This document shows, in pieces, positions 29,293 through 57,635 of a stretch of DNA of 64,000 nt. Origin of the DNA: Candidatus Enterousia sp. (GTDB lineage Bacteria; Pseudomonadota; Alphaproteobacteria; Rs-D84); assembly GCA_045614665.1 (NCBI GenBank), contig JAZLDI010000021.1, positions 20,108-84,107 on the forward strand, in the 5' to 3' direction. The notes beneath the pieces were generated by a model that saw nothing but the letters and a program-made list of their open reading frames with translations, ran no database searches and was not told the origin of the DNA. The first letter of the stretch is position 1. Every line of letters starts with the position of its first letter. The position numbers and the translations under genes were made by a program.

Positions 29293-29429
29293 ATAATATT
29301 CTACTTTTTCCTTGCATTTAATCGATTCGGTGCTAAAATAGGCTTGTTCTTAAAACAGTTTTTAAGGGCGGGGTTGAAAGAACCCCGCCTTTTAATAAGA
29401 TACGTAAACAAGTAGAAGGAGTTAAACAA

Positions 29430-30968
29430 ATGTCATTTGTTTCAATGCCGCGCCAGGATTTATTGCTTGCTATCGATTCCCTGGCCCAGGAAAAGATTAT
29501 TGATCGCGAAATTGTTATTGAGTCCTTAGAGGCGGCAATTGCAAAAATCGCAAAACACAAATATGGCGAAGAATTTAATATCGTTGCAAATATTGATCGC
29601 AAAAATGGTGCGATTTATGTCAAGCGCTTGTTTACTGTTATTGAATCGCCGGAATCTATGGGCGAAGAATATGATCCAAACACAATGCTGACGGTTGATC
29701 AGGCAAAAAAATATGCCAAAAGCCCAGTTGTTGGTGACGTTGTCGAAGATGCTTTGCCGGAACCTGAATTTGGACGTATGGCGTTCCAGACCGCAAAACA
29801 AATTATGACAACGCGCGTCCGTGACGCAGAAAAGGGTCGCCAATTCGAAGAATTCAAAGATAATATTGGCGATATTGTCAGTGGTGTTGTTAAACGTATT
29901 GAATTTGGCAATATCTTTGTTGACATTAATGGCAAGGCCGAAGGTTATATCAAAGGATCTGAATTAATCCCGGGCGAGCGTTTGAATGTTGGTGACCGTG
30001 TTCGTGCATTAATTATGGATGTTGCGCGTTCTAATTCTGGACCGCAAATTTTCTTGACTCGTACACATCCAATGTTTATGGAAAAATTGTTTGTCCAAGA
30101 AGTGCCTGAAATTTATGAAGGTATTATCAAAATCAAATCTGTTGCGCGTGCACCGGGCTCACACGCCAAGATTGCGGTTGAAACAGCTGATCCATCGATT
30201 GATGCGGTTGGTATGACCGTCGGTATCAAGGGTACACGTATTCAGCCGGTTATTAATGAATGTCACGGCGAAAAGATTGACGTTATTTTGTATTCCGAAG
30301 ATCCGGCCGTGTTTATCGTAAACGCAATGCAACCGGCCAAGGTCGCAAAAATTATCGTTGACGAAGATACTCGCACTGCTGCCGTTGTTGTTACCGAAGA
30401 TCAACAATCATTGGCAATTGGTCGCCGTGGTCAGAATGTTCGCCTGGCATCTCAGCTGACGGGGTGGAACATCGACGTTATGAACGAGGCTGAGGAACAA
30501 GAACGTCGCGCTAAAGAATTCAAAGAAAAGACAGAATTGTTTATTCGTGGTCTGGACGTTGACGAAATGATTGCACACCTGTTGATTACCGAAGGGTTCC
30601 GTACAATCGAAGAAATTGCATTTGTTGAATCCAGTGAATTGGAATCAATCGAAGGCTTTAATTCAGAATTAGCGGCCGAATTACAAAAACGCGCAAAAGA
30701 TTACCTGGACAAAATCGAACAAGATTATTTGGACGAAGGACATAAACTTGGGATGTCAGACGATTTGTTGACATTTACATTTATCAAGCGTCCAACAATA
30801 ATGCAATTGGGTGCAGCTGGTATTAAATCATTGGATGATTTGGCAGATCTGGCATCTGATGAATTGGTTGAAATCTTGGGCGAAGATAATATGTCAAACC
30901 GCCTGGCGGGACGCATCATTATGAAAGCGCGCGAGGTTGCATACGGCATAACCCAGGACGAGGAATAA
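29430..30968 (+). CDS. nusA: transcription termination/antitermination factor NusA
   Basis: NusA N-terminal domain, S1, KH1/KH2 and C-terminal acidic repeats. 512 aa. Confidence 0.95.
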   Translation: MSFVSMPRQDLLLAIDSLAQEKIIDREIVIESLEAAIAKIAKHKYGEEFNIVANIDRKNGAIYVKRLFTVIESPESMGEEYDPNTMLTVDQAKKYAKSPVVGDVVEDALPEPEFGRMAFQTAKQIMTTRVRDAEKGRQFEEFKDNIGDIVSGVVKRIEFGNIFVDINGKAEGYIKGSELIPGERLNVGDRVRALIMDVARSNSGPQIFLTRTHPMFMEKLFVQEVPEIYEGIIKIKSVARAPGSHAKIAVETADPSIDAVGMTVGIKGTRIQPVINECHGEKIDVILYSEDPAVFIVNAMQPAKVAKIIVDEDTRTAAVVVTEDQQSLAIGRRGQNVRLASQLTGWNIDVMNEAEEQERRAKEFKEKTELFIRGLDVDEMIAHLLITEGFRTIEEIAFVESSELESIEGFNSELAAELQKRAKDYLDKIEQDYLDEGHKLGMSDDLLTFTFIKRPTIMQLGAAGIKSLDDLADLASDELVEILGEDNMSNRLAGRIIMKAREVAYGITQDEE

Positions 30969-34153: not shown

Positions 34154-35488
34154 TTATTTTGTTCTGTTTATGCGTCCGGTCAGCAACCACCACAATTGTT
34201 GTGCACAACTTGTTTGTTCATTGATTTTACGCAAATGATCAGGGTCACCATTAACATAAAAAACACCTTTCATTAAATTGCGTGCTGGTTTGTCAATTTC
34301 TTTTGGTGCGCCGTTTATTTCTGCAATTGTTTTTCGAATATCACTACGGATGTTTTCGATATTTTGTTTTTGGGTTACACCTGAACACAAATCTTCTGTT
34401 TCGCGCTGAATCATATGTTTTAATTTCTTTGATGGTTTTATTGTATCATCTGTGGCGAAACGCGCAGACGAAAATACAGTTGGTTGTAAATCAACCAATT
34501 GTGCCATTTGTTGATGCAACGAAATAACCTCATTGTTTGCTTCTGCGATTGCCTGGGGCAGGGAATGATGAATTAGCTTGTCCAGTTTTTGTTCGCGTTC
34601 TTTTTGTTTTTTGCTTATTTGCCCGACCGATTTTGGTGCGGTTACCAGACCGAATTTTTTGCCCGGCACAATTGCACGTGATGCTAAATGATTGCGATAT
34701 GTCTTGCGCAGGTTTTGCAGTCTTGATAATCTAAGTCCCAGCATTACGCGACGAAATGCCCACCAAACGGTTTCGTTTGCAATTTTGTGCATACGTTCGT
34801 TTAAATATTTTGGTGGCATTTGTCCCGAATCCATCACGCCTTGGATCAGAATTGCATTCTTGTCCAGCATTGGTCTTGTTGGTGCGTGTTTGCGTGCAAA
34901 TGGGGGCAGCATACCAAAATCATATGCGTGAATATTCTGGATGGTGGTCATATATTTTTCGTGTTTTTCCTGACTAACACCGGTCGGTCTATTGTATTGA
35001 AAGAACTTCATTCGTTCATAAAGATTGTCGTCTGGTTCCGCCTCTTTGCCATTCAGTAAATCGCCATAAAGCCCAAAAATTAAATCAAATGAAATATCTG
35101 AAACAAAGGCGCCACGTGGGGGTTGATTACCCATAATTTTATCAGAATGCATTGCAATTCGATTGTCGTTTCCAATGGCAATAAATTTGTATCCCGATGG
35201 CGCAAATTTATTCATACACGCCAAGATAAGGCGCATATCAAATACGTCCATTTGTTTCTTGATTTCTTTTAGAGCCTCTGCTTTTTGTTCTTTAGCGCGC
35301 TGTGCCGCAACGCGTTTAGCTTCTCTACGTGCATTGTGTTCTGGGTCGCGTGACTGCGTTGGGTTGTCAACATACATCATGCGGCACACACGTTTTTTTC
35401 CCTCGTATACGCGTTTGCGCAACATCATACCGCCAACGGTTGGCTGTGATACAATATTATCTGTTTTGCTTTCAATATTTTCGGTCAT
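34154..35488 (-). CDS. hypothetical cytoplasmic protein (444 aa, no recognisable domain)
   Basis: Long uninterrupted ORF adjacent to tRNA-Val. Charged and helical, no signal peptide or TM. No family recognised. Confidence 0.5.
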   Translation of the reverse strand: MTENIESKTDNIVSQPTVGGMMLRKRVYEGKKRVCRMMYVDNPTQSRDPEHNARREAKRVAAQRAKEQKAEALKEIKKQMDVFDMRLILACMNKFAPSGYKFIAIGNDNRIAMHSDKIMGNQPPRGAFVSDISFDLIFGLYGDLLNGKEAEPDDNLYERMKFFQYNRPTGVSQEKHEKYMTTIQNIHAYDFGMLPPFARKHAPTRPMLDKNAILIQGVMDSGQMPPKYLNERMHKIANETVWWAFRRVMLGLRLSRLQNLRKTYRNHLASRAIVPGKKFGLVTAPKSVGQISKKQKEREQKLDKLIHHSLPQAIAEANNEVISLHQQMAQLVDLQPTVFSSARFATDDTIKPSKKLKHMIQRETEDLCSGVTQKQNIENIRSDIRKTIAEINGAPKEIDKPARNLMKGVFYVNGDPDHLRKINEQTSCAQQLWWLLTGRINRTK

Positions 35489-38369: not shown

Positions 38370-38398
38370 AAAAAATCCCGCTGTGTGGCGGGGTTTTT
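38368..38398. terminator. rho-independent terminator (bidirectional)
   Basis: aaaaaaaatcccgctgtgtggcggggttttt. Confidence 0.6.
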
Positions 38399-39074
38399 AT
38401 CGTGCCGGCGCAATACGCAATTCAATCCGCCGATTGGTCAGGCGTCCGATACCATCCTGGGCGGCAATGGGGCGTGTAGCTCCGCGCCCAACAATAAACA
38501 TACGTGTTGTGTTAATTCCGTGTTGTGCAAAATATACACCAACGCGTTGGGCCATATCTGATGACAGTGCATTTGCCGCCGATGTATTTTGCATTGCATC
38601 GGTATAGCCTGCAACTTCGATAAATGTTGCGTCAAATTTCTTTAATATTTTGCTGATTCTTTTTAATGTATCATCGCCGGTTGCGGATATTTGCGCAGCG
38701 TTTAATTCCATAATCGCATCCCGTACCAGAATTACAACAATCTCTGTCCCTGCGCGTTGAACGGAAATTCCTGGCTTGCGCAGACCGTCATAAAGTGCAA
38801 ATTCCAATTCAGACATATATTTAATAATTCGTGCATTGTCATTGGTTAATTTGTCGCCGTATTCGGAAACAGGTATCGTAACATCATCGTTTAATACCAT
38901 GCGTCCACCCGCCCCCAAATATACGGGGCGTTTTGCAACACGGGCCGTATCGGTCATATCTGTAAAGCTGGCCCCATTCAGGTATTGCATCCAATTTTCG
39001 CGTACCGGACTGACATACGGTGCACACGCCACCATCATTCCAATTAAAAATAAAGACGCAATTTTTTTATGCAT
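38397..39074 (-). CDS. OmpA-family lipoprotein (C-terminal OmpA/MotB peptidoglycan-binding domain)
   Basis: Lipobox MMVACA. C-terminal OmpA-like domain (AGYTD…NRRIEL). Last gene of the dnaX-pilin-ompA transcription unit. Confidence 0.7.
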   Translation of the reverse strand: MHKKIASLFLIGMMVACAPYVSPVRENWMQYLNGASFTDMTDTARVAKRPVYLGAGGRMVLNDDVTIPVSEYGDKLTNDNARIIKYMSELEFALYDGLRKPGISVQRAGTEIVVILVRDAIMELNAAQISATGDDTLKRISKILKKFDATFIEVAGYTDAMQNTSAANALSSDMAQRVGVYFAQHGINTTRMFIVGRGATRPIAAQDGIGRLTNRRIELRIAPAR

Positions 39075-39536
39075 TTATTGAACGATAAAAGAAATTTGAT
39101 TCGTTGGTGTTGAAAAACATCTGTCTGAGTTATCCAGAACCTCGTACCCGTTAATCAGCATTGCCGCCGACCATTGTGGTTTTGTGGTTTGGAAATAAGA
39201 GCATTCGCCCTGGGTTAATTCGGTCAGATTTATTGAAAAGGATTCGCCATCTGTGCTTGCTGTGACGGACCAATTGTCGCCACCCAATGGCGCCTTGTCA
39301 GATTTTAATGCGCCCGCCTTTATTAAATAGTCAACCGATACACCCGAATAATCGCCACGCATTTCCATCAATAATTTAACATCACCTGCAATTTGTTCCA
39401 GTTGCGATGTGGCTATTGTACGGGCATTGTTTTCTCGCATCATACGATACATACCAATTGCCGCCGCCGTCATAACGGTTCCGATTGCAATAACGCCAAC
39501 AATTTCAATCAAAGAACGTCCAGATTCATATCTCAT
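39075..39536 (-). CDS. type IV pilin / pseudopilin-like protein (153 aa)
   Basis: Leader MRYESG then RSLIEIVGVIAIGTVMTAAAIGMY: Gly at -1, Glu at +5, 20-residue hydrophobic helix. C-terminal Cys pair (CSYF…DRCF) like a pilin D-region. The start overlaps the dnaX stop (ATGA). Confidence 0.6.
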   Translation of the reverse strand: MRYESGRSLIEIVGVIAIGTVMTAAAIGMYRMMRENNARTIATSQLEQIAGDVKLLMEMRGDYSGVSVDYLIKAGALKSDKAPLGGDNWSVTASTDGESFSINLTELTQGECSYFQTTKPQWSAAMLINGYEVLDNSDRCFSTPTNQISFIVQ

Positions 39537-41140
39537 TATTTCACCCCTACGATTTCTGCGTTTTCAAATAAACTCATTGCGCTGGCAATCATTGGATCGG
39601 CGGCCAATTCTTCTTGTTTTTGTTCGGTAATTGTATGTGTGTGTACCGTTTCGGTCGCGCGTTCCAGTTGCCATTGTTTTCCGGTTTTGTCCATCAGCCA
39701 CGACGCCAACCGTGGTGCAAAATCTGCATCCCCACGTCTGTCAAAGTATTTGATTTTGCCATCCGTGATTTCTGCAACCTCTATGTTGCTAGAATAATAA
39801 GAGTACAGTAATATTTCCTTGGACTCTTGTAATAATTGTGCCAGTTCCACTGCGGTTGTAATTTGTGGCTTTTCCGGCGTGGCGGATACTGGTTGTGCTG
39901 GCGTTCCGCCATGATTGCTTAATGCGTCCCGTACCGCTCCAACATTTGGACGGGGGGCGTCATTTTTTTTTATCAGTTCTGCGACCGTTGGCATATCTGC
40001 AACATGCATCATACGTACAATCAGCATGTCAAAGCATTGCTTTTGATTGCCACTGGCCTGCATTTCTGGGACGGCGGCAACCATAACCTGCCATATGCGG
40101 GACAAGGTATTTAATGTTGCGGTCTTGTTAATTTCGCGAATTTGATTTCGTTGGTCGGCGGTATATGGGGAATTTGTTACGTCGCCCGCATGCAAGCTTG
40201 GGTGCATACGTGTTGCCCAATGCGTCCATTCCATCATATCCAATAACAACATAGACAAATCAGCGCCGTTATTATAGATGGCGTCAACCTTGTCCAGTGC
40301 CGCCGCTGTATTTCCAGATAAAACCGTTTTCATAAAGTCAACCACGACCCCACGGTCTGCACGTTTAAGCATGTCTAGAACCGCCGCCTCGTCTACGTGG
40401 CCACCGGTTTGCGCTATTGCCTGGTCCAGTAATGATAATCCGTCGCGAACCGAACCATCGGCTGCGCGTGCCAATAATTCATTCGCGGCATCTGATAATT
40501 CAACTTGCTCCTGATCTGCTACCCATGCGAAATGTTTTTTCAGTGTATCAACCGGAACGCGCATCAAATCAAACCGTTGGCAACGTGACAAGATTGTAAC
40601 CGGAACCTTTCGGATTTCGGTTGTCGCTAAAATGAATATAACGTGTGCTGGTGGTTCTTCTAGTGTTTTAAGCAACGCATTAAATGCACTGGTTGATAAC
40701 ATATGGACTTCGTCGATAATATAAACCTTGTACCGACCGTTTGTTGGGCGATATTGCGCCGCATCCAGAATGTCACGCATATTATCAACGCCAGTATGTG
40801 ATGCTGCGTCGATTTCCATAACGTCAATATGTTGGCCCGCCGCAATTGATTTACAGTTTTCACAAACGCCACACGGTGTTGCAGTGGCCTTGTCCGACGA
40901 TAAACAGTTCAAGGCCTTGGCCAGGATACGTGCCGTACTGGTTTTTCCAGTTCCGCGAATTCCGGTAAAAATATACGCATGCGCAATGCGTCCTGTATTA
41001 ATTGCGGTGGTTAATGTTTTTACCAAAACTTCTTGGCCGATAAGGGTTTGAAAATCTTGACTGCGATATTTACGCGCTAAAACGGTATAATTGCTATCCA
41101 TACTAAAACTTCCTTTTGATATACAATAGCAAACCCGCAC
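39536..41140 (-). CDS. dnaX: DNA polymerase III subunits gamma/tau
   Basis: AAA+ clamp-loader (GIRGTGKTS Walker A, zinc module C..C..C..C, SRC motif). 534 aa. Confidence 0.9.
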   Translation of the reverse strand: MRVCYCISKGSFSMDSNYTVLARKYRSQDFQTLIGQEVLVKTLTTAINTGRIAHAYIFTGIRGTGKTSTARILAKALNCLSSDKATATPCGVCENCKSIAAGQHIDVMEIDAASHTGVDNMRDILDAAQYRPTNGRYKVYIIDEVHMLSTSAFNALLKTLEEPPAHVIFILATTEIRKVPVTILSRCQRFDLMRVPVDTLKKHFAWVADQEQVELSDAANELLARAADGSVRDGLSLLDQAIAQTGGHVDEAAVLDMLKRADRGVVVDFMKTVLSGNTAAALDKVDAIYNNGADLSMLLLDMMEWTHWATRMHPSLHAGDVTNSPYTADQRNQIREINKTATLNTLSRIWQVMVAAVPEMQASGNQKQCFDMLIVRMMHVADMPTVAELIKKNDAPRPNVGAVRDALSNHGGTPAQPVSATPEKPQITTAVELAQLLQESKEILLYSYYSSNIEVAEITDGKIKYFDRRGDADFAPRLASWLMDKTGKQWQLERATETVHTHTITEQKQEELAADPMIASAMSLFENAEIVGVK

Positions 41141-41181: not shown

Positions 41182-41538
41182 TCAGTTTAAATTTGTAATA
41201 AAATCAGGAAACGGACTTTCTTCTTCGTCTTCTTTGTCGGCGGTATTGTTGGCCTCTGCTTCTGCGATTGCTTTTTCGGCGGCGGCCTTTTCTTTGGTGT
41301 CGCGACTGGAATCAATTTTGCCCTGTTCTGCATTTACCATACGACCATAATGTTCGGCTGCCTGCAACAGGCGTTCGCGTTCAATTTCATCCGGTGTCTG
41401 GCGTGCCTGGTCGATGTACTGTTTTCTTCTTTGACGCCATTTATGACAACGTTGAATCATTTGTCCGACATTGGATTGATTTTTTTTATTTTGCATATTA
41501 AGTCTTTTGTTAAATGGAAAGTTTTTTATCAATTTCAC
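41182..41538 (-). CDS. small basic/acidic hypothetical protein
   Basis: ORF upstream of and co-oriented with dnaX. Lys/Arg-rich N-terminus, acidic C-terminus. The start is possibly the internal Met at 41496. No family recognised. Confidence 0.35.
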   Translation of the reverse strand: MKLIKNFPFNKRLNMQNKKNQSNVGQMIQRCHKWRQRRKQYIDQARQTPDEIERERLLQAAEHYGRMVNAEQGKIDSSRDTKEKAAAEKAIAEAEANNTADKEDEEESPFPDFITNLN

Positions 41539-41643: not shown

Positions 41644-42999
41644 TTGCGTAAACAATCAGGTAATTTTTTAGTCCAGGCGTTATTGGCATTAACATTGATT
41701 TTTGCCTTTATACCATTTATTGCGACGCAACTTGCGGCCCGTAATATTGATGCGCAAATGTATTCATCAACACGCCAGATTGGCAATGCCTCTACCGCGG
41801 CACGTATATTTATTCGCGAAAATGCACGACTGATTTCGTATGGGCAAACGGTTGTTGCCGGGGACGATTTTGCGGATTTGTTGGAACCATATGGGTTGCC
41901 ACTGGGGTTTGTACCGCGTACCCCCATGGGACAGGATATAATTTTGGTTATCAATAAAACGCCAACGGATGTGTCGGCATATTTGGATGTGACTGGTGGT
42001 GGTTTGTCTGAATTAAAGTTGGCTGAATTGGCGCGCAGAATTGGTTTCTATGCGACGTCAATTGATAATGGTGTGCGTGTTGGAATTGTGTTAACCGATG
42101 ACTATTCTGACATTGTTCGTCGGAACGAACCGGACCTGGACAACAGTGGTTTTTTAACAGACATAGATATGGGGAATTTTTCATTTCGTAATGCGGGCAA
42201 TGTGTTTGCATCCGGTGGTGATTTTAATACTGCCCAGTTTACAACCCTTTCGATTGTTGGTACTGAATCTGGTCGCAAGGCGCAAAATGATATAAAAAAT
42301 ATTACCGCCAACAAGACTGTTTTTCAAAGCCGTACGGGTGAGGCTGCCTTGGCTCTGTCGCGTGGAACGTTGTTGTTGGGGACACTGGATGCGCGTACGG
42401 TTTCCAAGTTTGGTGATATGGGAAGCTTTACGGCAAATTCTGCGGCTGTTTATGATTTTTCCATGACGGCTGGACGTACAGCATTTACGGGTCCGGCCAA
42501 ATGGAATGTTCATGGTAATGTTGCATCAAACAAGATGAATTTTAGTGTAGAGCGCCTGGATATAGATTCGCATCTAAACGTTACCCGTGGTCAGGACGTT
42601 TTTATCGACGCCGATACATTGGAATACAGTACAAAAAGCGGGATAGAGGCAGGTACTGTTTATGCGTCCAATATTACTGTTCGTGATCAGACGTCCCAGG
42701 GGTTGTCTGGTGGCTCGTCGGGTGCAACGATTTTGGATATTCGTCCGGCGGGTGTATCTTTATTGCCAGATGTTTTGGTTGATTCTGTTAATAACGACAA
42801 TTTTAAAATTCTAAAAAGTCCAGATGCTGATAACGGCGATACAATTACATGCAAAGACATCATTGTTGATTTTGGTGGCGTTTATAATTCCAAGTCTTTG
42901 GCCCATAATTTAATTTGCCAGTATGTTTTTTGGCAGCGTCTGGAACACAGAATCAAAATAAAACAATGTTTAATGGCGGGTGGCAGTGACTGTATTTAA
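41644..42999 (+). CDS. large prepilin-type N-terminal domain protein (451 aa), paralog 1
   Basis: TTG start. 6-aa basic leader MRKQSG then NFLVQALLALTLIFAFIPFIATQLAA (Gln at +5). Shine-Dalgarno-like AGGGGG upstream. The rest is Thr/Ser/Gly/Asn-rich and predicted beta. C-terminal Cys residues. Confidence 0.55.
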   Translation: MRKQSGNFLVQALLALTLIFAFIPFIATQLAARNIDAQMYSSTRQIGNASTAARIFIRENARLISYGQTVVAGDDFADLLEPYGLPLGFVPRTPMGQDIILVINKTPTDVSAYLDVTGGGLSELKLAELARRIGFYATSIDNGVRVGIVLTDDYSDIVRRNEPDLDNSGFLTDIDMGNFSFRNAGNVFASGGDFNTAQFTTLSIVGTESGRKAQNDIKNITANKTVFQSRTGEAALALSRGTLLLGTLDARTVSKFGDMGSFTANSAAVYDFSMTAGRTAFTGPAKWNVHGNVASNKMNFSVERLDIDSHLNVTRGQDVFIDADTLEYSTKSGIEAGTVYASNITVRDQTSQGLSGGSSGATILDIRPAGVSLLPDVLVDSVNNDNFKILKSPDADNGDTITCKDIIVDFGGVYNSKSLAHNLICQYVFWQRLEHRIKIKQCLMAGGSDCI

Positions 43000-44191
43000 A
43001 ACAAAAATTTTTACAGATGAAAATCGTGGCGCCAGTGTTATGGAAGTCTTACTGGCGCTGGGGATTGTTGCGCTGGCGACACCGTTTGTGTATTCCCAAA
43101 TTTCGCGCAGCACCCAAACCGTACGCGATATGGCGCACGCAAAACAAATTATGGATGTTCGTGATAATGTTTTGAACTTTGTTCGTATGAATCAGGACAA
43201 ATGGCCAGATGTTGCACAAATAAGATTAGATGAAGATGAATTGCGCGCAATATCTGATGTGCCGGTTGCGGGATTGATTGATAAATATTCTGTGCGTGGT
43301 GCGACAATAACGGATGTGTATTTGGCGTACGAAATCGGTGATGATTTAATGACGACCGCGCGTATTGCGTCGCATATTGGCTCTGATGCGGCAGTTGTGT
43401 CTGATGATGGTGTGGCGTATGGTCCGTCTTGGGCGGCGGCGGCACCGGATTTTGCACCGGGTGATTTGGTTTATCGTATAACACGTGATGTGTCTGGATC
43501 GGATACGTCGCGATATTTACATCGTGCAACATCGGGCGAAGACAAATTAAATGTCATGTTCCGTGATTTAAATATGGGGGGCTACAATGTATACAATACT
43601 GCGTCCATCCTTGCTGATTCGGTGCGTTCAAATAATGCCACTGCATTTTTTGTAAACGCAGACGATATCGCGGCGGAAAATGTATACTTTTCATCTGGGG
43701 CAAATATGGATGGCGGCGATGTCTTTATTAACAGTATGCGTGTGTCTGGGGATATAACTGGCTTTAAAAATATTTATGCTGATAAAATGAATGGTACTAC
43801 ATACACAACATCTGGTCGTATTATCGCGGACAAGGCAACGGTTGCAAATTCTATAAATATTTCGCGTGACTTGATTTTGAAATCAGATTCGACAAAAACA
43901 ATAAGTGGGTTTACAGGTATTACAACCGGGACGGTTTTGGCGCCATTTTTATCAACCGAAGAAATTGTTTTTTACGAAGATTTCGGCCTAACGGTATCTG
44001 GTGAATTGTTAATGTCAACGGTTGCGCCGTTACAGATTGGGCGTTGGGTATTTCCATCAACGACACCTCCGCGTTTTTCACAATTTACCATATCGCGTAC
44101 AACCAATCCATCTATGCCAGATGTGTCAGAATTTAACGCGATAATGAAATCTGGCTGGATGCAGACTGAAACAATAATACCAACGGAATAA
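42980..44191 (+). CDS. large prepilin-type N-terminal domain protein (403 aa), paralog 2
   Basis: GTG start overlapping the paralog 1 end. ...DENRG then ASVMEVLLALGIVALATPFV (Glu at +5). The post-helix region aligns with paralogs 1 and 3 on a Q…I…V..(F/Y)(V/I)RxN pattern. Confidence 0.55.
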   Translation: MAVTVFKTKIFTDENRGASVMEVLLALGIVALATPFVYSQISRSTQTVRDMAHAKQIMDVRDNVLNFVRMNQDKWPDVAQIRLDEDELRAISDVPVAGLIDKYSVRGATITDVYLAYEIGDDLMTTARIASHIGSDAAVVSDDGVAYGPSWAAAAPDFAPGDLVYRITRDVSGSDTSRYLHRATSGEDKLNVMFRDLNMGGYNVYNTASILADSVRSNNATAFFVNADDIAAENVYFSSGANMDGGDVFINSMRVSGDITGFKNIYADKMNGTTYTTSGRIIADKATVANSINISRDLILKSDSTKTISGFTGITTGTVLAPFLSTEEIVFYEDFGLTVSGELLMSTVAPLQIGRWVFPSTTPPRFSQFTISRTTNPSMPDVSEFNAIMKSGWMQTETIIPTE

Positions 44192-44192
44192 A

Positions 44193-45524
44193 ATGACAAA
44201 AAGATACGGTATTTTTTCTGATTTTATGCATAACCCTGCTCGTGGCAGCATGCTTGTTGAATTACTGCTAAGTGTGGCGTTGGCGGCATTGGTGATTCCT
44301 TTTATTTTTCAGTATCACCAAAATGCAGCTGTTCGTACCCAGAATATTGCAATAACACAAAATATGAACGCGGTTCAAAATGTTCTGGAGCGGTATATCG
44401 TTGAAAATCGTACCGATTTACTGCGTACTGTTGGAAAAAATATTACGCGTGTAAATATTGCAGACTTAACAGAATATGGTTTGTCACCAACTCTTGTTCA
44501 GGATGCTGATAAATACCAGTTGCGCATCTTAAAGTCAACTGACACCACGGGCAGCGCGACATTACAAGGTGTTGTTGTTTATACATCATCGGATATTACA
44601 CCAATTCGTACCCGCGAAATTGTAAACATTGGTGGGGCGAATATGGGGTTTGTTGATGGTACGCGTGCGTATGGCGCATATGGTGCGTGGCGTAACGATA
44701 TTTCTGATATCGGCATCGATGCCCGTGATGGTATTGTCGGCACCACATCGGTAAAGCGTGATGCTGCATTATATCTGTCACGTTTACCGTCTGATAATAT
44801 TGACGATGCAACAATGATGTCGCCGTTTAATCTTGGGGGGCACGATATTATAAATGCTCGGTTCTTTGATGCGTCTACTATTCAATTTGCAGAAGATTTG
44901 AATATAAAGTCTGGTGTGGTTCGTGACTTGATATTTCAAAATCGCACAGCGATTGACACAACGTATACGTCTGAAACTGCAACAGTCTCGGGTGGTTTGT
45001 CGTCAGATGGTCGTACAATGGAAATTTCTGGCAAGTTTCTTCTTGCAGACGTGGGCAAGTTTTCATCATTCACAGTAGGTGATTTGTGGACATCGACGAT
45101 GACATTGTCTGGATTGTCGATCAGTGCATATGATGAATATTATCGCGAACAGCCCGCAATATTAAAGATTGCTGGATCTTTGGATATGACGGCGGGGCGC
45201 ATAGAATCGCTTTATACAACGGTTGGTTTTGCAGGGTCGATTACACCACGTTTGGTTGTGTATGATCGTATAGAGGATTCTAAAAATTCTGATTATTATT
45301 GGGATGTGGATAAATCGTCGGCAAACTTTGCGGACGTGACATTAGCGGAACTTAATCGCTTGGCAACATTGGCGGCGCATTTCGAGAAGGTTCCCGGTAC
45401 AGACAGCGCTACCTTGTTTGGTGGTGTGACCGCGAACAAGAATGCGACGGCGGCGGATTTTATGAATGCTATTCGTGAAATTCAGACCCGTGTTCGTGCG
45501 AAATATCGCCTGTTGAATTTGTAA
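44193..45524 (+). CDS. large prepilin-type N-terminal domain protein (443 aa), paralog 3
   Basis: ATG 1 nt after the paralog 2 stop. ...HNPARG then SMLVELLLSVALAALVIPF (Glu at +5). An alternative internal ATG gives a 7-aa leader MHNPARG. Confidence 0.55.
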   Translation: MTKRYGIFSDFMHNPARGSMLVELLLSVALAALVIPFIFQYHQNAAVRTQNIAITQNMNAVQNVLERYIVENRTDLLRTVGKNITRVNIADLTEYGLSPTLVQDADKYQLRILKSTDTTGSATLQGVVVYTSSDITPIRTREIVNIGGANMGFVDGTRAYGAYGAWRNDISDIGIDARDGIVGTTSVKRDAALYLSRLPSDNIDDATMMSPFNLGGHDIINARFFDASTIQFAEDLNIKSGVVRDLIFQNRTAIDTTYTSETATVSGGLSSDGRTMEISGKFLLADVGKFSSFTVGDLWTSTMTLSGLSISAYDEYYREQPAILKIAGSLDMTAGRIESLYTTVGFAGSITPRLVVYDRIEDSKNSDYYWDVDKSSANFADVTLAELNRLATLAAHFEKVPGTDSATLFGGVTANKNATAADFMNAIREIQTRVRAKYRLLNL

Positions 45525-45547: not shown

Positions 45548-46072
45548 ATGAAAATAACATGTGATTTTTGTAAAACAGAATATAATACCCCGTCGCGTGC
45601 GGGCGCAGCCGTGCGTTGCGCGGTGTGTGGCAATACATGGACGGTGCCAATGCCTGCGCGCAAGAATGCGTTTTTAATGTTTTTTGCGTCTTTGTGTGCA
45701 TTGTTGTCTGTAATTGTATTTGTTGTTGCGGTTGTTGTAACGCACAAGCCGAATCCGGAACGCGATGCTCCATTGGTTGCGCGTGTGACTGGACACGAAA
45801 TTGTGACAAACGACGATGGTGCACGTAATTTGAAAGTATCTGGTACGGTTTATAACCAGACGTCAGATATCTATGGTATGCCGGATATAATGATTGTTTT
45901 GCGTGATGCGGACGGCCGCACAATTGCTAGCCAGAAATTTATGCCATCTGCAACATTGATTGACGCGGGTGGTACATCAAATTTCACATATACTTTGTCT
46001 GGTCCGGTATCACCGGATATAAAAAGCATAGATGTACGCTTGGTTGTCGATGGGGGACAGGATGAAAAATAA
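45548..46072 (+). CDS. zinc-ribbon (MJ0042-type CxxC…CxxC) plus TM plus DUF3426-like domain protein
   Basis: N-terminal CDFC…CAVC zinc ribbon, a single TM (LMFFASLCALLSVIVFVVAVVV), a periplasmic beta-rich domain. 174 aa. Confidence 0.55.
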   Translation: MKITCDFCKTEYNTPSRAGAAVRCAVCGNTWTVPMPARKNAFLMFFASLCALLSVIVFVVAVVVTHKPNPERDAPLVARVTGHEIVTNDDGARNLKVSGTVYNQTSDIYGMPDIMIVLRDADGRTIASQKFMPSATLIDAGGTSNFTYTLSGPVSPDIKSIDVRLVVDGGQDEK

Positions 46073-46532
46073 AATATACTCAGTTTTACTTGGTTGTATA
46101 TTGTCCGTGGCGGCAAATGCGGCAACGGAAACGCCGATACAGCCACGTGTGTCCATTTTTTCCACCAGCACTGATTGGGAGGCTGTAACCGGTCGTCCCC
46201 TGAATGAATATTATGGAAAATTTAGTGGTCGTTCATCGCTGATTGGTCGTGGTTTAATGCTGTACTATCTGGATGGTTTTCCGTGTTATGGCCTTGGGGG
46301 CAGTGTCCAGGCCTGGGTTGGTCCTAACGGTGATTCGTCACATCGATTGCGTCTAGCTTGCGTGGCGGCGCCCAAGACAATAAACTTTGCATGGGTTCAT
46401 GCATCGCGTGACGCGGACGACCAAACAACAACGGGAATTTTGACATGTGAAATTGATGGCGATGGCGGTCGTGATTTTGAAATTGACTTGTCGCGTTGTA
46501 CACGTGGCCCCGATTGGGATGATTATGAATAA
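46062..46532 (+). CDS. small secreted cysteine-containing hypothetical protein
   Basis: GGGGGACAGG Shine-Dalgarno motif, then ATG at 46062. Signal peptide MKNKIYSVLLGCILSVAANA. Four or more Cys. The start overlaps the end of the preceding gene. Confidence 0.45.
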   Translation: MKNKIYSVLLGCILSVAANAATETPIQPRVSIFSTSTDWEAVTGRPLNEYYGKFSGRSSLIGRGLMLYYLDGFPCYGLGGSVQAWVGPNGDSSHRLRLACVAAPKTINFAWVHASRDADDQTTTGILTCEIDGDGGRDFEIDLSRCTRGPDWDDYE

Positions 46533-47582: not shown

Positions 47583-50500
47583 TTGGGAATGTCATTCTTG
47601 AAAAAAACTGTTAGTATGTTGGCTGTTTTCGCCGTATTTCCGGCGGCTTTTGCGGTGACTGCGCGTCCCAGTGTGATGAACACTGTAACGGCAACATCGC
47701 GTCGTTTGCCGACGTTGACTGCGTATATTAATTCTGCGACTTCATCAACATCGACGACAACGTCTTCATCGACAATGTCAGATACCGAATGTGTTGAAGC
47801 GTATACCGAATGTATGAAGGGCGAAGATGCCTGTGGTCCAGAATTCGAAGAATGTACAACCCGTAAATTGTTTCACGGTAAAATGCCGGTGTGCTTGAAT
47901 GTTTTATCACAGTGCTCGTCTGCTGGTGTTAATGATTTGTTTGGGACGTCTGCGATTTCTGCGCTTGGTAATATCAAGACCACGGATTCTGCGACGGGTG
48001 AAATTTTGGATTATACATACCCAACCGATGGCAGTGCGATGGGGCAATGGGTGTCGGCGGCGGCCATTAATAACCAGTATGATACATCGACATGTGTGAA
48101 ACGTTATACGTCCTGCTTGAACAAGGAAAGTGTTTGTGGTGCCGATTTTGAATTGTGTACATCTACCAAAGATTTCAAGAAACAAGCTTTGTTTTGTGAT
48201 TCAACATTGGCTCGTTGTCAAAGTGCAGGGGTACGCGAACTGTTTGGTGTATATCCATGGACTCCGTCCAGTGCGTCAATTGGTGGTCGTGTGGCGTCTA
48301 TGATTGAAGATGGGGCACAATTGGCGGCGATGAATGCGGTTTCAACGTGTTACAAGGTTGTGGAACAGTGTTTCTTGGGTGCGTGTACGGCCAATCCGTT
48401 CCGTTGTATTGAGGGGGCAACTCTCGAAACTGTAACGGCGGCGAATTTGGCGTCTGAAACATCGGAAAATGCAACGGCTGTATCTGCGTCTGGTGATGTT
48501 TTATCTAAAAGCGATGTTAATCGTTATTTAAAAACATCTTGTTTGGATACAATTGGTGCAAATAAGTATTGTCATATGACGTTCCGTGAAAAAACACCGA
48601 CCAAGGGCGAATTGTCTGATGTCGAAGCTCAAGAAGAAGTGTTTGAGGCGGCAATTGACCAACGTAAAAAATACGTTGATTCTAAAATCCAAGACATAAT
48701 GCAGAAATTTGACACCCGTGCCAAGAACAAATGTTCTGAAACAATTCGTTCATGTGCAATGCGCACCTGTGGCGAAGGGATTGGTTCTGTATGCTATACA
48801 TCTGTATTTAATGGTTCCAATGAATCTATTAACAAAGAATCTACATATGCCCAGATAAAACGCGGTTGTGAATCGATTGTTAATACCGACACAAATTGTC
48901 AGTATGCGTATGCCTCTGTCAAGAACCAGGCCTATTCCTATGCATACTTAAATGACGGGGTGTTTGATACATTGTTCCCGGTATATGATGAAACAACCAA
49001 GTCCGATCCAATTGGTGTTGTTGCATCGTTAAATGCGACATTGTCTAATAATTACAGTATGGCTGCAATTGCAGAGATGAAAAAACAATGCCAATCCGTC
49101 GCGACCAGTTGCGTCAAGACGATGTGTGGTACGGACTATGTAAATTGTTATCGCAATCGTACGGATATTGTTGGCGATTTAACACAAACAGGCGATGCTG
49201 ACTTTGATAAATCAATGAACAAAGCTGGTGGTGTTCTGGATTACACAATCGTATTGGGGCTGTGTATGAACACGGTAAAGGCGGCCGATGTTTGTGATGA
49301 GCATCTTAAAATCGAACAGGCTCGTTTGGCCCAGGGCGCAAATCTTAGCAACAGCTGGGGTGAATCGGCATCTGTGCGTGATGGCTGGATTGATGCTGGC
49401 GGTGCCAAGTCTGTAACGGTTGATACCGAAACAGTTCAAAAGGTTGATGCCAACGGTAATAAAATCTGTGCCAATTCCAAGGGGTACGAGGGTATTTGTT
49501 ACCAGGTTGACAACGATGGCGACGTATATGATGAACCGGTTATGGAATCATATAAAACATATCTGACGAACCAGTCTGCGACCACATTGTTCCGCGAACT
49601 GTTAAGCGATATTGAATACGAGGCCCAGGCAAAATATAACGCCAAACTGACCAAACAGCAAAATATGTGTATGTCGGCAAATTCTGGTGGTGTAATGGGT
49701 AAAAATGATTTGGCCTCTACATTTATGTGGGCGAAATTAAAGAACAACAAGGTTCCGGCCAATTACGCAACGGCCGGTCTGAAACCAAACCAGGTTGTGG
49801 CCAGTAATGAATTGTATGGTTCTTTCTGTCGGGTACGTGTAAACATTCAATCCGACGACAAAGATATCCAAGATGCCATTAACAAGGGCGCAGATTGGGC
49901 AACGGCATACTTTGCCGCCGGCGACGCCTTTACCTGTGGCAGCTGGATAAGTGGCAATGATTTGGAAAAAATTGCCGAAGTCGTTGGCAAGGACGCCCGT
50001 GCGGATAAAGAAAAGACCCAGGCTAAAAATCTTGAATGGTGGTTGGCGCCAATCGCCGCGATTGGAACGGGTGTTGGTGGCGCATACCTGGGGGCGGGCA
50101 TTGCAAACGGTGACGTATTTGGCAAACTGTCCGGTCTGAATTCAAACAAGAAAGATACGAATTCAGTAGAAGCCAGTCAAAAGGGTTGCAAAAACAGTAT
50201 TGATTCTGCAACGACTATATTAGGGTCCAGCGACAACAAGGATTATGGTATTATTGAAATGCATGTAAATGCCGCGATTACAAGCGCAAAAAAACTAGAT
50301 TTGCCAACAACTACTGTAGAAGGATACTTAAAAACATATAAAGAAAAGGTTGATGCATATAAGAGTGATGCAAACAAGAAAACAGAGGCTGAAACCGCTA
50401 ATGAAAACCTGAAAAATGGCTTAGGCGCGTTGAAAAATTTGTGTGAGGCGGGAAGCAACAATGAAGAAGAAAATTCTGCCAAGAAAACGCAAACGGCGGC

Positions 50501-50705
50501 GGGGATAACCGGTGCAATAACGGCGGTTGGCGGTGGCATAATGACATTCTTTGCGACCAAGGCGATTAAAAATGCCATCCTGGACAAGGCCGAACAAGAG
50601 GCATATGATACCTTTATGAATGAAATTGGTAATCATATCTACTGTTACATCGGCGGTGAAGAGGCCGGTCAATACGGCGACGTCATTGCCACCAGTATGG
50701 AATAA
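47583..50705 (+). CDS. large secreted cysteine-rich repeat protein with C-terminal membrane anchor (1040 aa)
   Basis: Signal peptide (…FPAAFA), Ser/Thr-rich linker, about 50-aa Cys-rich modules in at least two clear copies plus degenerate ones, two C-terminal hydrophobic segments. No recognised family. Confidence 0.65.
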   Translation: MGMSFLKKTVSMLAVFAVFPAAFAVTARPSVMNTVTATSRRLPTLTAYINSATSSTSTTTSSSTMSDTECVEAYTECMKGEDACGPEFEECTTRKLFHGKMPVCLNVLSQCSSAGVNDLFGTSAISALGNIKTTDSATGEILDYTYPTDGSAMGQWVSAAAINNQYDTSTCVKRYTSCLNKESVCGADFELCTSTKDFKKQALFCDSTLARCQSAGVRELFGVYPWTPSSASIGGRVASMIEDGAQLAAMNAVSTCYKVVEQCFLGACTANPFRCIEGATLETVTAANLASETSENATAVSASGDVLSKSDVNRYLKTSCLDTIGANKYCHMTFREKTPTKGELSDVEAQEEVFEAAIDQRKKYVDSKIQDIMQKFDTRAKNKCSETIRSCAMRTCGEGIGSVCYTSVFNGSNESINKESTYAQIKRGCESIVNTDTNCQYAYASVKNQAYSYAYLNDGVFDTLFPVYDETTKSDPIGVVASLNATLSNNYSMAAIAEMKKQCQSVATSCVKTMCGTDYVNCYRNRTDIVGDLTQTGDADFDKSMNKAGGVLDYTIVLGLCMNTVKAADVCDEHLKIEQARLAQGANLSNSWGESASVRDGWIDAGGAKSVTVDTETVQKVDANGNKICANSKGYEGICYQVDNDGDVYDEPVMESYKTYLTNQSATTLFRELLSDIEYEAQAKYNAKLTKQQNMCMSANSGGVMGKNDLASTFMWAKLKNNKVPANYATAGLKPNQVVASNELYGSFCRVRVNIQSDDKDIQDAINKGADWATAYFAAGDAFTCGSWISGNDLEKIAEVVGKDARADKEKTQAKNLEWWLAPIAAIGTGVGGAYLGAGIANGDVFGKLSGLNSNKKDTNSVEASQKGCKNSIDSATTILGSSDNKDYGIIEMHVNAAITSAKKLDLPTTTVEGYLKTYKEKVDAYKSDANKKTEAETANENLKNGLGALKNLCEAGSNNEEENSAKKTQTAAGITGAITAVGGGIMTFFATKAIKNAILDKAEQEAYDTFMNEIGNHIYCYIGGEEAGQYGDVIATSME
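47787..48249 (+). repeat. intragenic tandem repeat encoding 8-Cys modules (ECVEAYTECMKGEDACGPEFEEC… and TCVKRYTSCLNKESVCGADFELC…)
   Basis: Two roughly 53-aa segments with identical Cys spacing, both ending …CxSAGV(N/R)(D/E)LFG, separated by about 48 aa. Confidence 0.5.
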
Positions 50706-50707
50706 AT

Positions 50708-50737
50708 AAAAAATCCCGCCACATGGCGGGATTTTTT
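50708..50737 (+). terminator. rho-independent terminator
   Basis: aaaaaatcccgccacatggcgggattttttg. Confidence 0.6.
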
Positions 50738-56220: not shown

Positions 56221-56250
56221 AAATCACCCGCAATGCGCGGGTGCTTTTTT
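56219..56250 (+). terminator. rho-independent terminator after murG
   Basis: aaaatcacccgcaatgcgcgggtgctttttt. Confidence 0.55.
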
Positions 56251-56327
56251 ATTTTGATTCCAGTCTATTTTTCCGCTTGCACCAAAATCGTTATTTGTTC
56301 TATGATGATAACGGAAGGAAAGGAATT

Positions 56328-57635
56328 ATGCGTCATATAACTGTATCAATTTTTGCGTTTTTGCTTGCAGTGCCTGCGTTTGCGGATGCAAGGTTGCCGG
56401 TTGTAAACCTGGCGGCCGCTGGGATTTCTGCACGTGCCGCATTCGGAGAGAGTGTACCAACATCAAAAAAACAATTGCCAAAACGGAATGTTGTTGCGCG
56501 TCCTGCGGTTCAGCGTGTTGCCACCCCTGCAAAAATGGCGAATGTGACGGCGACCACGGTTGGCACATCGAATGATATATTGATTCCAAATCGCCCCAGC
56601 AATGATTTATGGGCGCATAATTCTACAAATTTGAACGCATCTGTTGATGCGCCACTGCGTATGCCGACACCATCTGAATTTGCGGTTTATCGCAGTGATG
56701 AAATTTTACCAGAAGAAAGTCTGGATGTTTCTACAATGCCAAAGACGTACGCGTATAATGATGATGCGCCGGTTGTTCCGGCACGCACCGCGGCGGCAAA
56801 AAAAACTGAATTGGATGCCCAGATTGAACGCCTGGTTGAATTACAGCGTCGTGCCGACGAAAGTGTTACGCCAACCAATGTTGCGCCACGCGTGATTGCG
56901 CGCCCAGTGGTTGATGAACCAATTGCGCCACGTGTAGATGATGTACGTGTTGCCGTGGCGGAAGTAATACCCACAGAAACCGTAAATGTGCGTCGTATGG
57001 TTGTGCCAATGGAAACACAGGATGTTATTGTGCGCAGTGTTGAAAAAAATCAATCCCCACGCATTGCAGCGGTGCGCGATGATATGACAAAACTAAGCCC
57101 GTCTGAATTACGTCGTGCATTTCGTAAAACATTCCTGTCGGAAAATAAACATTTATCCACATACCAAATGGATGATTCCTTTGATGTGGTCAGCGATATG
57201 GGCTCGTCATCCGGTTCATTTACATCTTCTCGTGATTTAAGCGAGGATGCAGGCATTCGTCCATTGGAAATAAAAATTAATTTCCGCAATGATGATTCGT
57301 CTTTGTCGCGTGATAACTATAATTTGTTAAGTGAATATGCTGCAATCGTTGTTCATAATCCAACGCGTGCGATTCAGATTGCAATTCCAGCACGCACAAC
57401 GACCGATGTGGATGCGCGAAAATTAACGGCACGCCGTCTGGCTATTGTTGAACAGGTTTTACGTGATACAGGTGTGTCAATGCAACGCATTGTTCCTGTG
57501 TTGTCGCAACGTGACGAAGATGGTTTTGTTTTACGTGTGATATCTAATGAGCAGTATGAAAGCTTGTCCCAGCAAAAACGTAATATCTTTGGCGATACAG
57601 TTTCATCCAAGAAGTATAAAAGTTTAACGTGGTAA
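56328..57635 (+). CDS. secreted Pro-rich protein with degenerate C-terminal OmpA-like domain
   Basis: AAGGAA Shine-Dalgarno motif plus ATG at 56328. Signal peptide MRHITVSIFAFLLAVPAFADA. Pro/Val-rich linker. The C-terminus aligns to the OmpA_C pattern but lacks the GHTD motif. Confidence 0.45.
   Translation: MRHITVSIFAFLLAVPAFADARLPVVNLAAAGISARAAFGESVPTSKKQLPKRNVVARPAVQRVATPAKMANVTATTVGTSNDILIPNRPSNDLWAHNSTNLNASVDAPLRMPTPSEFAVYRSDEILPEESLDVSTMPKTYAYNDDAPVVPARTAAAKKTELDAQIERLVELQRRADESVTPTNVAPRVIARPVVDEPIAPRVDDVRVAVAEVIPTETVNVRRMVVPMETQDVIVRSVEKNQSPRIAAVRDDMTKLSPSELRRAFRKTFLSENKHLSTYQMDDSFDVVSDMGSSSGSFTSSRDLSEDAGIRPLEIKINFRNDDSSLSRDNYNLLSEYAAIVVHNPTRAIQIAIPARTTTDVDARKLTARRLAIVEQVLRDTGVSMQRIVPVLSQRDEDGFVLRVISNEQYESLSQQKRNIFGDTVSSKKYKSLTW

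Follow-up and report, generated by a model that had tools for sequence, protein, structure and literature searches.

The window analysed in this study, a stretch of 64,000 nucleotides from Candidatus Enterousia, contains three adjacent genes for large proteins with prepilin-like N-termini and no pilus machinery beside them. The question raised by this locus is what these proteins are, and for what purpose a bacterium with so small a genome would keep them. Ca. Enterousia and its lineage Rs-D84 are widespread in the guts of ruminants, birds, and humans, have genomes of less than 1 Mb, and lack most of central metabolism (PMC12306168).

All three genes are located on the forward strand. They encode the PilV-like large pilins P1 (41644..42999, TTG start, 451 aa), P2 (42980..44191, GTG start, 403 aa), and P3 (44193..45524, ATG start, 443 aa), which represent families 1, 2, and 3, respectively. 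Reading frames, junctions, and leaders confirmed the preliminary description of three adjacent, coupled genes for proteins of 403–451 aa with prepilin-type N-termini. As described there, the GTG start of P2 overlaps the end of P1 (by 20 nt), and the ATG of P3 sits 1 nt past the stop codon of P2. The exact start of P2 was revised: because about 1015 homologs found by database search were called as 401 aa, P2 probably begins at the GTG codon of 42986 (401 aa), with an overlap of 14 nt. By pattern scan only, a strong 13-bp hairpin with A/T runs on both sides was detected at 50708..50737, with no earlier convincing terminator between P1 and this element, and it likely marks the end of a P1-P2-P3-ZnR-p166-RluD-1040aa transcription unit. 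No relatives of p166 and of the 1040-aa neighbor were found in the PDB sequence set, and an exact-sequence look-up of P3 and of the gene at the right end of the window matched no record.

Each protein starts with a short basic leader that ends in Gly, followed by Glu (Gln in P1) at position +5 and about 20 hydrophobic residues. The leaders comprise 6 aa in P1 (MRKQSG/NFLVQ; 41644..41661, + strand, with Gly6 as last residue and putative cleavage site), 15–17 aa in P2 (...ENRG/ASVME), and 18 aa in P3 (...PARG/SMLVE). Of the family members with 350 aa or more, 355 bear the motif, and 351 of these have Gly at −1; Pro occurs at +18 in about 97 %, including P1 and P2. Position +5 was occupied by Glu in 118/119 members of family 2 and 115/119 of family 3, and by Gln in 117/117 members of family 1 (Gly at −1 in 116/117). 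This conservation across the families is far above chance, and the class III signal previously noted in all three proteins was borne out by the near-invariant residues at −1 and +5. Minor pilins without Glu at +5, such as those of family 1 with Gln, are a known kind of exception. Family 1 of L093 carries Glu at +5, so that the Gln is lineage-specific and not kept outside Enterousia. Scans with Pfam and NCBIfam models gave no N_methyl match (PF07963/TIGR02532) for P1, P2, or P3; weak matches were obtained for 13/31 orthologs of family 2 (best E 0.01), and none for orthologs of families 1 and 3.

The three proteins had also been described as paralogs. In pairwise BLASTP, likeness was confined to the first ~50 residues (E 0.008, 1.4, and none), and a simple recent duplication was rejected because these comparisons were almost empty. 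Profile-profile comparison, by which alone the paralogy becomes visible, linked alignment A2 to A3 (97.8 %, E 9e-13), A1 to A3 (95 %, E 3e-8), and A1 to A2 (61 %, E 8e-5). The claim held for the N-terminal ~180–210 residues and not for the remainder. Judged by their sequences, P1, P2, and P3 are ancient paralogs related to PilV.

Comparison with PilV by hhalign yielded 98.2 % for P3, 96.1 % for P2 (E 2.8e-9 over 203 columns), and 93.4 % for P1, and a profile search brought up Shufflon_N proteins, within a PilV-domain superfamily of 323 representatives. The constant N-terminal part of PilV (PF04917) thus has homologs in proteins whose beta-rich C-terminal parts had been said to match no recognized domain. 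In direct scans, P1, P2, and P3 themselves remained below every Pfam and NCBIfam threshold, and PF04917 was matched by 2/31 orthologs of family 3 (best E 5.8e-6) and 2/31 of family 2 (best E 7.1e-4); the family relationship is detectable only via orthologs and profiles. Alignment A3 served as query for the genome scan, the diverse alignment A6 being too variable.

The pilin domain of all three proteins ends in the PilV signature LYR...N.M...(I/L)(D/N)MGGN.(L/I)NN, located by hhalign and encoded on the + strand in each case. It is clear in P2 (43502..43609, DTSRYLHRATSGEDKLNVMFRDLNMGGYNVYNTASI; YLHR...LNVMFRDLNMGGYNVYN) and in P3 (44769..44858, LYLSRLPSDNIDDATMMSPFNLGGHDIINA; LYLSR...ATMMSPFNLGGHDIINA), where Y194, R197, P199, M208, N213, L214, G215, and H217 are invariant. 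In P1 (42106..42201, SDIVRRNEPDLDNSGFLTDIDMGNFSFRNAGN; VRRN...FLTDIDMGNFSFRNAGN) it is degenerate, lies where the pilin head meets the beta-rich region, and aligns to LYR..V.G.PELN.M.TSIDMGGN.LNN; D175, M176, and G177 are invariant or near-invariant.

PilV, a large minor pilin and adhesin, belongs to the type IVb thin pilus of the IncI1/IncI2 plasmids R64 and TP114 and of PAPI-1-type elements. The Enterousia proteins share with it a size of about 400–470 aa, the class III signal with Gly at −1 and Glu at +5, a homologous pilin domain of ~200 residues that ends in the signature and is followed by a Gly/Asn/Thr-rich beta region, and a PilS-type major pilin as partner. The PilV protein of TP114 acts as an adhesin, with receptors on the surface of target cells as its ligands (PMC9045228). 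The earlier interpretation as a divergent set of minor pilins or tip adhesins was supported. Several features differ. PilV is encoded on plasmids or islands by a single gene with switchable 3′ ends and hypervariable C-termini, whereas the Enterousia genes are chromosomal and consist of three fixed paralogs with conserved C-termini. Unlike PilV systems, they lack sfx repeats, the repeats between 41500 and 47600 being at chance level only, and an Rci recombinase, as no recombinase was present among the window ORFs. A shufflon was rejected on these grounds and in view of the conserved C-termini. Furthermore, the triplet does not form the end of a pilL-pilV operon on a conjugative element: it lies outside any such operon, with no ATPase, platform protein, peptidase, or secretin nearby, and in a chromosomal housekeeping context in about 80 genomes.

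The class III signal, an alpha1 helix of ~55 residues, and a pilin head make up the first ~190–220 residues of each protein. Next comes a region rich in beta structure, probably a beta-helix, which starts from a conserved (L/M)x(L/M)GG..N motif; the C-terminal domain beyond it is specific to each family. The models show the pilin fold, in which the N-terminal alpha1 helix is extended and packs on a head of antiparallel beta-sheet, and this head fold together with Pro at +18 fits type IVb pilins, not Flp-type pilins. P3 is predicted to consist of the pilin domain, a beta-helix-like middle part, and a C-terminal three-helix unit. The model of P1, a protein with four invariant C-terminal cysteines (C403, C425, C442, and C450), is poor except for the pilin and C-terminal domains. 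Structurally, the beta-helix region resembles adhesins, in a model of low confidence; its pLDDT was 55–70 for P3 and below 50 for P1. A Foldseek search against the PDB returned no significant match; this and the low pLDDT weigh against the adhesive pilus proposed below. The C-termini are conserved to the same degree as the pilin domains, with even conservation over the full length, which is atypical of adhesins under diversifying selection and also weighs against this reading.

Other pilin families were compared as well. The size of the proteins had been regarded as closer to GspK or TadG; no match to GspK or a TadG-type protein was obtained, and PilV was found instead. Specifically, TadE (PF07811) or TadG-type models gave no match at E ≤ 1 in the window proteins or 93 orthologs, and the GspI/J/K models were not reached by the window proteins, aside from a match of P2 to GspI (TIGR01707; E 0.0047, 17.4 bits) below the cut-off of 44.35 that covered alpha1 alone. 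The TadE/TadG and GspK identities were rejected. Points in common with the Tad system (TadE/TadF/TadG, type IVc) are the large size of TadG, the frequency of Tad pili in Alphaproteobacteria, and a ZitP-like gene next to the triplet, ZitP being tied to Tad/Cpa pilus assembly in Caulobacter. The tip of the type II secretion system, GspK-GspI-GspJ, is likewise built from three different minor (pseudo)pilins encoded in succession and contains one large member without Glu at +5 (GspK); the Gln of P1 would fit a top position. It served as working analogy for filament priming by three alpha1 helices, although significant homology is lacking, all three Enterousia proteins are large (400–450 aa), and the Gln, as noted, is confined to Enterousia. 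CofB (ETEC CFA/III) and TcpB (Vibrio cholerae TCP) are minor pilins of type IVb pili, large in size and located at the tip; each is encoded by a single gene and is reported to act as a homotrimer. Neither was matched in a PDB profile search with family 3; in contrast to them, the three distinct Enterousia paralogs suggest a heterotrimer, and the C-terminal domains are apparently unrelated.

A candidate for the major subunit of the filament is encoded 2 kb from the triplet. This PilS-type (type IVb) pilin of 153 aa (39075..39536, − strand; G6/RSLIE11) belongs to the dnaX operon, its start overlapping the dnaX stop, and was found in 78/85 loci. Pfam PilS (best E 6.3e-5) and N_methyl were each matched by 31/38 of its orthologs; Cys112 and Cys140 are invariant, and weak PDB matches pointed to geopilin and TcpA. 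Its stop codon abuts the start of a co-operonic gene for an OmpA-family peptidoglycan-binding lipoprotein (38397..39074, − strand; PF00691, E 3e-14), syntenic in 78/85 loci; whether this lipoprotein is part of the pilin system is uncertain. On the other side, 23 nt past the P3 stop and after P3 in 85/85 loci, lies the gene for a bitopic ZitP-like protein of 174 aa (45548..46072, + strand; Zn_ribbon_4, E 1.8e-6; DUF3426, E 2.2e-4). It is composed of a cytoplasmic MJ0042-type Zn-ribbon, one transmembrane segment, and a periplasmic DUF3426 domain; among orthologs, 39/40 matched Zn_ribbon_4 and 20/40 DUF3426, with individual scores under the Pfam gathering cut-offs. Caulobacter ZitP, which has a role in pilus assembly, shows the same architecture in 311 aa (PMC5182063).

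On these results, the triplet and the 153-aa PilS-type pilin are taken as subunits of the filament in a type IVb-like pilus encoded on the chromosome, which suggests that Ca. Enterousia builds a hard-wired adhesive pilus. To the full reading, a PilV-like triplet that forms a heterotrimeric tip and mediates adhesion to partner cells or host material, we assign a probability of roughly 60 %. A prepilin peptidase encoded elsewhere would cut after the invariant Gly, and mature P1, P2, and P3 would associate through alpha1 into a fixed heterotrimer that primes the filament or forms its tip, by analogy with the CofB/TcpB homotrimers and the GspK-I-J tip. P1 may be uppermost, given its Gln in place of Glu at +5 and the shortest leader; this argument is weakened by the Glu in family 1 of L093. 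The C-terminal domains, which are conserved and do not switch, would attach to an unchanging surface ligand of partner cells or host material and thereby anchor the metabolically dependent bacterium, and the site of assembly may be set by the ZitP-like protein of the same transcript. Against such a role stands the fact that ZitP is widespread in Alphaproteobacteria and takes part in processes unconnected with pili.

The absence of assembly machinery in cis, as previously stated for the 64 kb, held in ORF reading, family scans, and tblastn. The assignable ORFs of the window are housekeeping genes, and family scans of the rest revealed no pilus component. Prepilin peptidase, assembly ATPase, platform protein, and secretin were found neither in the window nor in 9 kb of left extension, and neither the surroundings of the cluster (up to 10 kb away) in about 80 genomes nor the gene contexts of distant clades contained pilus machinery. 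A tblastn search of 1.55 Mb of related flanks with the full IncI pil operon recovered only PilV, with no match to PilM, N, O, P, Q, R, S, T, or U. The literature yielded no machinery either; a published genome survey gives type IV pili for another lineage and is silent on Rs-D84. Both the missing machinery and this silence weigh against the adhesive pilus. A variant in which the three pilins and the PilS-like pilin function without dedicated type IV machinery would be even more unusual.

The same observations agree with an exaptation, in which the machinery was lost during genome reduction and the PilV-like proteins, cleaved or not, are held in the inner membrane by alpha1 as a periplasmic or envelope-spanning scaffold, perhaps polar via the ZitP-like protein, with a structural housekeeping role. 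The core-genome neighborhoods, with probable co-transcription with rluD and the coupling of the 153-aa pilin to dnaX, are in line with this, as is the uniform conservation without a variable adhesin tip. However, the survey's silence does not show absence, Gly at −1 and Glu at +5 have no known role beyond peptidase cleavage and filament assembly and yet are near-invariant in ~355 sequences and in distant lineages, and the PilS-type major pilin is retained next to them, its D-region disulfide intact. We consider exaptation unlikely. Less probable still is a genuine filament with another function: it could be a pseudopilus like that of type II secretion, with the three pseudopilins at its tip, or a pilus for DNA uptake by which a nucleotide-auxotrophic cell is fed. 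Its three-subunit layout would resemble GspK-I-J, P2 shows faint N-terminal matches to GspI/XpsI/ComGE (E 0.005–0.1), and a ComF-type protein is encoded in the window (57629–58348); but these matches are far under the cut-off and limited to alpha1, ComF is widespread and unlinked, and the homology to PilV and the type IVb structural likeness are orders of magnitude above those to any pseudopilin or Com pilin. That the proteins are ordinary signal-anchored or secreted proteins with a chance class III resemblance, as their scores under all curated family thresholds and their negligible pairwise BLAST similarity might indicate, is effectively refuted by the hhalign homology to PilV and the structural similarity to type IVb pilins.

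For the adhesive pilus, a further-reaching interpretation is offered tentatively: a hard-wired type IVb pilus, with the three PilV paralogs as its heterotrimeric cap, might be the cell-to-cell attachment organelle of a partner-dependent symbiont, the counterpart of the mating-pair-stabilizing plasmid pilus, and possibly the ancestor of plasmid PilV and its shufflon, or the reverse. Every species examined keeps the triplet and the PilS-like pilin at a cost of about 4 kb (some 0.4 % of the genome), and this retention points to a core function. The triplet and the pilin thus provide a concrete candidate for the attachment apparatus of Ca. Enterousia, and public databases gain an annotation for over 2,500 "hypothetical proteins". 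The PilV/Shufflon_N family is extended from mobile elements to chromosomes, where it diversifies by fixed gene triplication too, and not by DNA inversion alone.

The three tandem large pilin-like proteins P1, P2, and P3 are encoded on the plus strand at 41644–42999 (451 amino acids, TTG start), 42980–44191 (403 amino acids, GTG start), and 44193–45524 (443 amino acids, ATG start), respectively. Their starts overlap or abut as described previously, with a 20-nt overlap between P1 and P2 and a 1-nt gap between the P2 stop and the P3 ATG. Since P2 homologs in databases are consistently called with 401 amino acids, translation of P2 probably begins at the GTG at 42986, which shortens the overlap to 14 nt. 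The P1 TTG is preceded, at a distance of 11 nt, by a Shine-Dalgarno-like GGGGG run. Downstream of P1–P3, no convincing plus-strand terminator was found in the window before a strong terminator-like hairpin at 50708–50737, and the module is probably co-transcribed. The last gene of the unit, followed by this hairpin, is probably that at 47583–50705 (+). Its product, a Cys-rich protein of 1040 amino acids, starts with a signal peptide and has hydrophobic segments in its C-terminal part; no relative was found in Pfam, NCBIfam, or the PDB.

Scans of P1–P3 against Pfam and NCBIfam gave no significant match; their orthologs and profiles, in contrast, revealed the PilV/Shufflon_N family. In the type IVb thin pilus of IncI plasmids, this family provides the large minor pilin, which serves as adhesin. 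Three independent lines agree on the assignment of P1–P3 to it. Firstly, PF04917 directly matched 2 of 31 family-3 orthologs, with a best E of 5.8e-6, and 2 of 31 family-2 orthologs, with a best E of 7.1e-4; families 1, 2, and 3 denote the orthologs of P1, P2, and P3. Secondly, a tblastn search of 7.3 Gb of plasmids with one family-3 member yielded 198 weak matches, and among the 15 listed, 14 lay on annotated pilV genes ([quoted passage not shown]). Thirdly, an exhaustive HMM search of 1.84 billion representatives with the family-3 profile retrieved only 323 proteins at E ≤ 1e-3, with Shufflon_N proteins accounting for 10 of 46 distant ones (best E 2.6e-67). Reciprocal hhalign comparisons with six annotated PilV proteins gave 98.2% (E 4.9e-14, 217 columns) for family 3, 96.1% (E 2.8e-9, 203 columns) for family 2, and 93.4% (E 2.5e-7, 188 columns) for family 1. 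The alignments terminate at the PilV signature LYR..V.G.PELN.M.TS(I/L)DMGGN.(L/I)NN; P2 and P3 show it plainly, P1 only in degenerate form.

The proposed paralogy of P1–P3 holds for their N-terminal parts only. BLASTP likeness was confined to the first ~50 residues (E 0.008, 1.4, and no match). Comparisons of the ortholog profiles, spanning the N-terminal ~180–210 columns, gave 97.8% (E 9e-13) for families 2 and 3, 95.1% (E 3e-8) for families 1 and 3, and 61% (E 8e-5) for families 1 and 2, pointing to real but ancient homology, whereas relatedness of the C-terminal halves was not detectable by this comparison. Cross-species identity within the families is only 55–62% overall. With median identities of 58–62%, P1–P3 evolve at a rate similar to the neighboring 153-aa pilin (59%) and faster than DnaX (79%) or RluD (76%), and conservation is even from the N- to the C-terminus of each protein.

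The prepilin-type N-termini were confirmed (a slash marks the putative cleavage site): MRKQSG/NFLVQ in P1, MAVTVFKTKIFTDENRG/ASVME in P2, and MTKRYGIFSDFMHNPARG/SMLVE in P3. The motif is present in 355 of the 358 database family members that have at least 350 amino acids; of these 355, 351 carry Gly at −1. At +5, 115/119 members of family 3 and 118/119 of family 2 have Glu, and 117/117 of family 1 have Gln, while Pro occupies +18 in ~97%. Given this near-constancy, the resemblance to a class III leader is not due to chance. The Gln is specific to Enterousia, as a distant family-1 protein (locus L093) has Glu at +5.

The triplet recurs in much more distant lineages in the order family 1, 2, 3. 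At L093/L094 it encodes 498, 476, and 426 amino acids with the identical 20-nt overlap and 1-nt gap, and adjoins lpxA/lpxB; partial versions occur at L010 and L091. The triplication is hence ancient, and the maintained order and coupling suggest a fixed stoichiometric complex. A separate clade of ~900–1140-aa proteins (P0456, P0460, P0464, and others; loci L092 and L101) has a PilV-like prepilin N-terminus, G/SMMVEALAMLGL...TPVLYKK, and shares a pilin domain of ~220–290 residues. Other clades, on short contigs, carry tandem large PilV-like genes, for 454 and 465 amino acids (L098) and for a 472-aa Laminin_G_3 protein and 621 amino acids (L099).

All P1–P3 homologs are annotated as hypothetical proteins of uncultured Alphaproteobacteria. 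In a scan of species-representative genomes, 216 matched stretches encode a relative, and the hosts are Candidatus Enterousia and its relatives, from the gut of sheep, deer, yak, goat, and chicken. Genome size in Enterousia (order Rs-D84) is 0.75–1.0 Mb; the group lacks the TCA cycle, respiration, flagella, and standard transporters, and reliance on partner cells has been proposed for it (PMC12306168). The window is housekeeping chromosome (RpoH, ParAB, LptD/SurA, NusA/IF2, PNPase, DnaX, MraY/FtsW/MurG, ValS). Gene orientation flips at ~28200–29430, from mostly minus to almost all plus strand, and the cumulative GC skew reaches a minimum around 28–30 kb and rises steadily afterwards; this coincidence fits a putative replication origin near the LptF/G–NusA intergenic region. 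Open reading frames lacking a Pfam match at E ≤ 0.01 encode a 538-aa lipoprotein (2772–4388, −), a 444-aa basic protein (34154–35488, −), and, after murG, a 464-aa secreted protein (56241–57635, +).

Across 85 loci a block is conserved, comprising the OmpA-lipoprotein, the 153-aa pilin, DnaX, and a DUF4167-like protein, followed by P1–P3, a Zn-ribbon protein, the small protein p166, RluD, and usually the 1040-aa protein (68/85), while the outer flanks vary. The DUF4167-like small basic/acidic protein (41182–41538, −; E 0.0019), divergently oriented from P1, is kept in 81/85 loci. The p166 gene (46032–46532, +; probable start 46062), between the ZitP-like gene and rluD, is present in 84/85; in its secreted product of ~156 amino acids, four Cys and the motif SIFSTSTDW are invariant, and the profile of this protein matched nothing in the PDB.

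The 153-aa protein (39075–39536, −) is best assigned as a PilS-type (type IVb) major pilin: its orthologs match Pfam PilS (best E 6.3e-5) and N_methyl in 31/38 cases each, and G6, E11, and the pair Cys112/Cys140 are invariant. Its ATG overlaps the dnaX stop (TAATG), and its own stop is followed by the OmpA gene with a 0-nt gap. The three genes (38397–41140, −) are translationally coupled; a pilin in a dnaX operon is unusual. It is shown that P1–P3 are pilin-fold proteins of the PilV family whose class III signals are under constraint, and that they stand beside a PilS-type pilin in a conserved module. The gene 23 nt after P3 has ZitP architecture (Zn-ribbon, TM segment, DUF3426). This adjacency is only suggestive of a pilus link, because ZitP has roles unrelated to pili too. 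Assembly of the polar Cpa pilus of Caulobacter needs the ZitP DUF3426 domain (PMC5182063).

The absence of pilus machinery in cis was borne out. A tblastn search with an annotated IncI-type set (PilM, N, O, P, Q (ATPase), R (platform), S, T, U (peptidase)) found only PilV matches in the window and 1.55 Mb of related loci; family scans detected no pilus components among unassigned window ORFs, and the 9 kb beyond the left edge held housekeeping genes only. The only mention of type IV pili and competence genes in the one genome survey concerns another lineage. The main rival explanation is exaptation, with P1–P3 being membrane-anchored envelope proteins left after loss of the machinery; the lack of machinery in cis and their uniform conservation would suit it. 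However, the near-invariant Gly at −1 and Glu at +5 favor continued processing and assembly, and mainly on this ground we infer that both still occur. A filament serving secretion or DNA uptake is possible but less supported. A ComF-type protein with a double zinc ribbon and a phosphoribosyltransferase domain is encoded at 57629–58348 (+); links of the ComF family with DNA uptake in competent bacteria make it relevant to the latter reading. A shufflon at P1–P3 was rejected, as repeats were at chance level, no recombinase was found among the window ORFs, and the C-termini are conserved.

If P1–P3 are processed and assembled, a peptidase encoded elsewhere would cleave them after the Gly, and the three alpha1 helices would join much as in the CofB/TcpB trimers and GspK-I-J, giving a heterotrimer that would prime the filament or form its tip; P1 is tentatively placed uppermost. 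The surface presented to a partner cell or host ligand would be adhesive and unchanging, made up of beta-helical stalks and the conserved C-terminal domains; this accords with the selection of target cells by PilV (PMC9045228) and the proposed partner dependence of Enterousia. P1–P3 represent a known superfamily (PilV/Shufflon_N, the type IVb minor pilins) in an arrangement new for it: unlike plasmid PilV, they lie on the chromosome as a non-switching triplet, with no coupling to assembly genes. The triplet belongs to the core genome of a lineage of ultra-small gut symbionts, and its interest would be higher if no machinery exists, or if the pilus is the attachment organelle of these bacteria.
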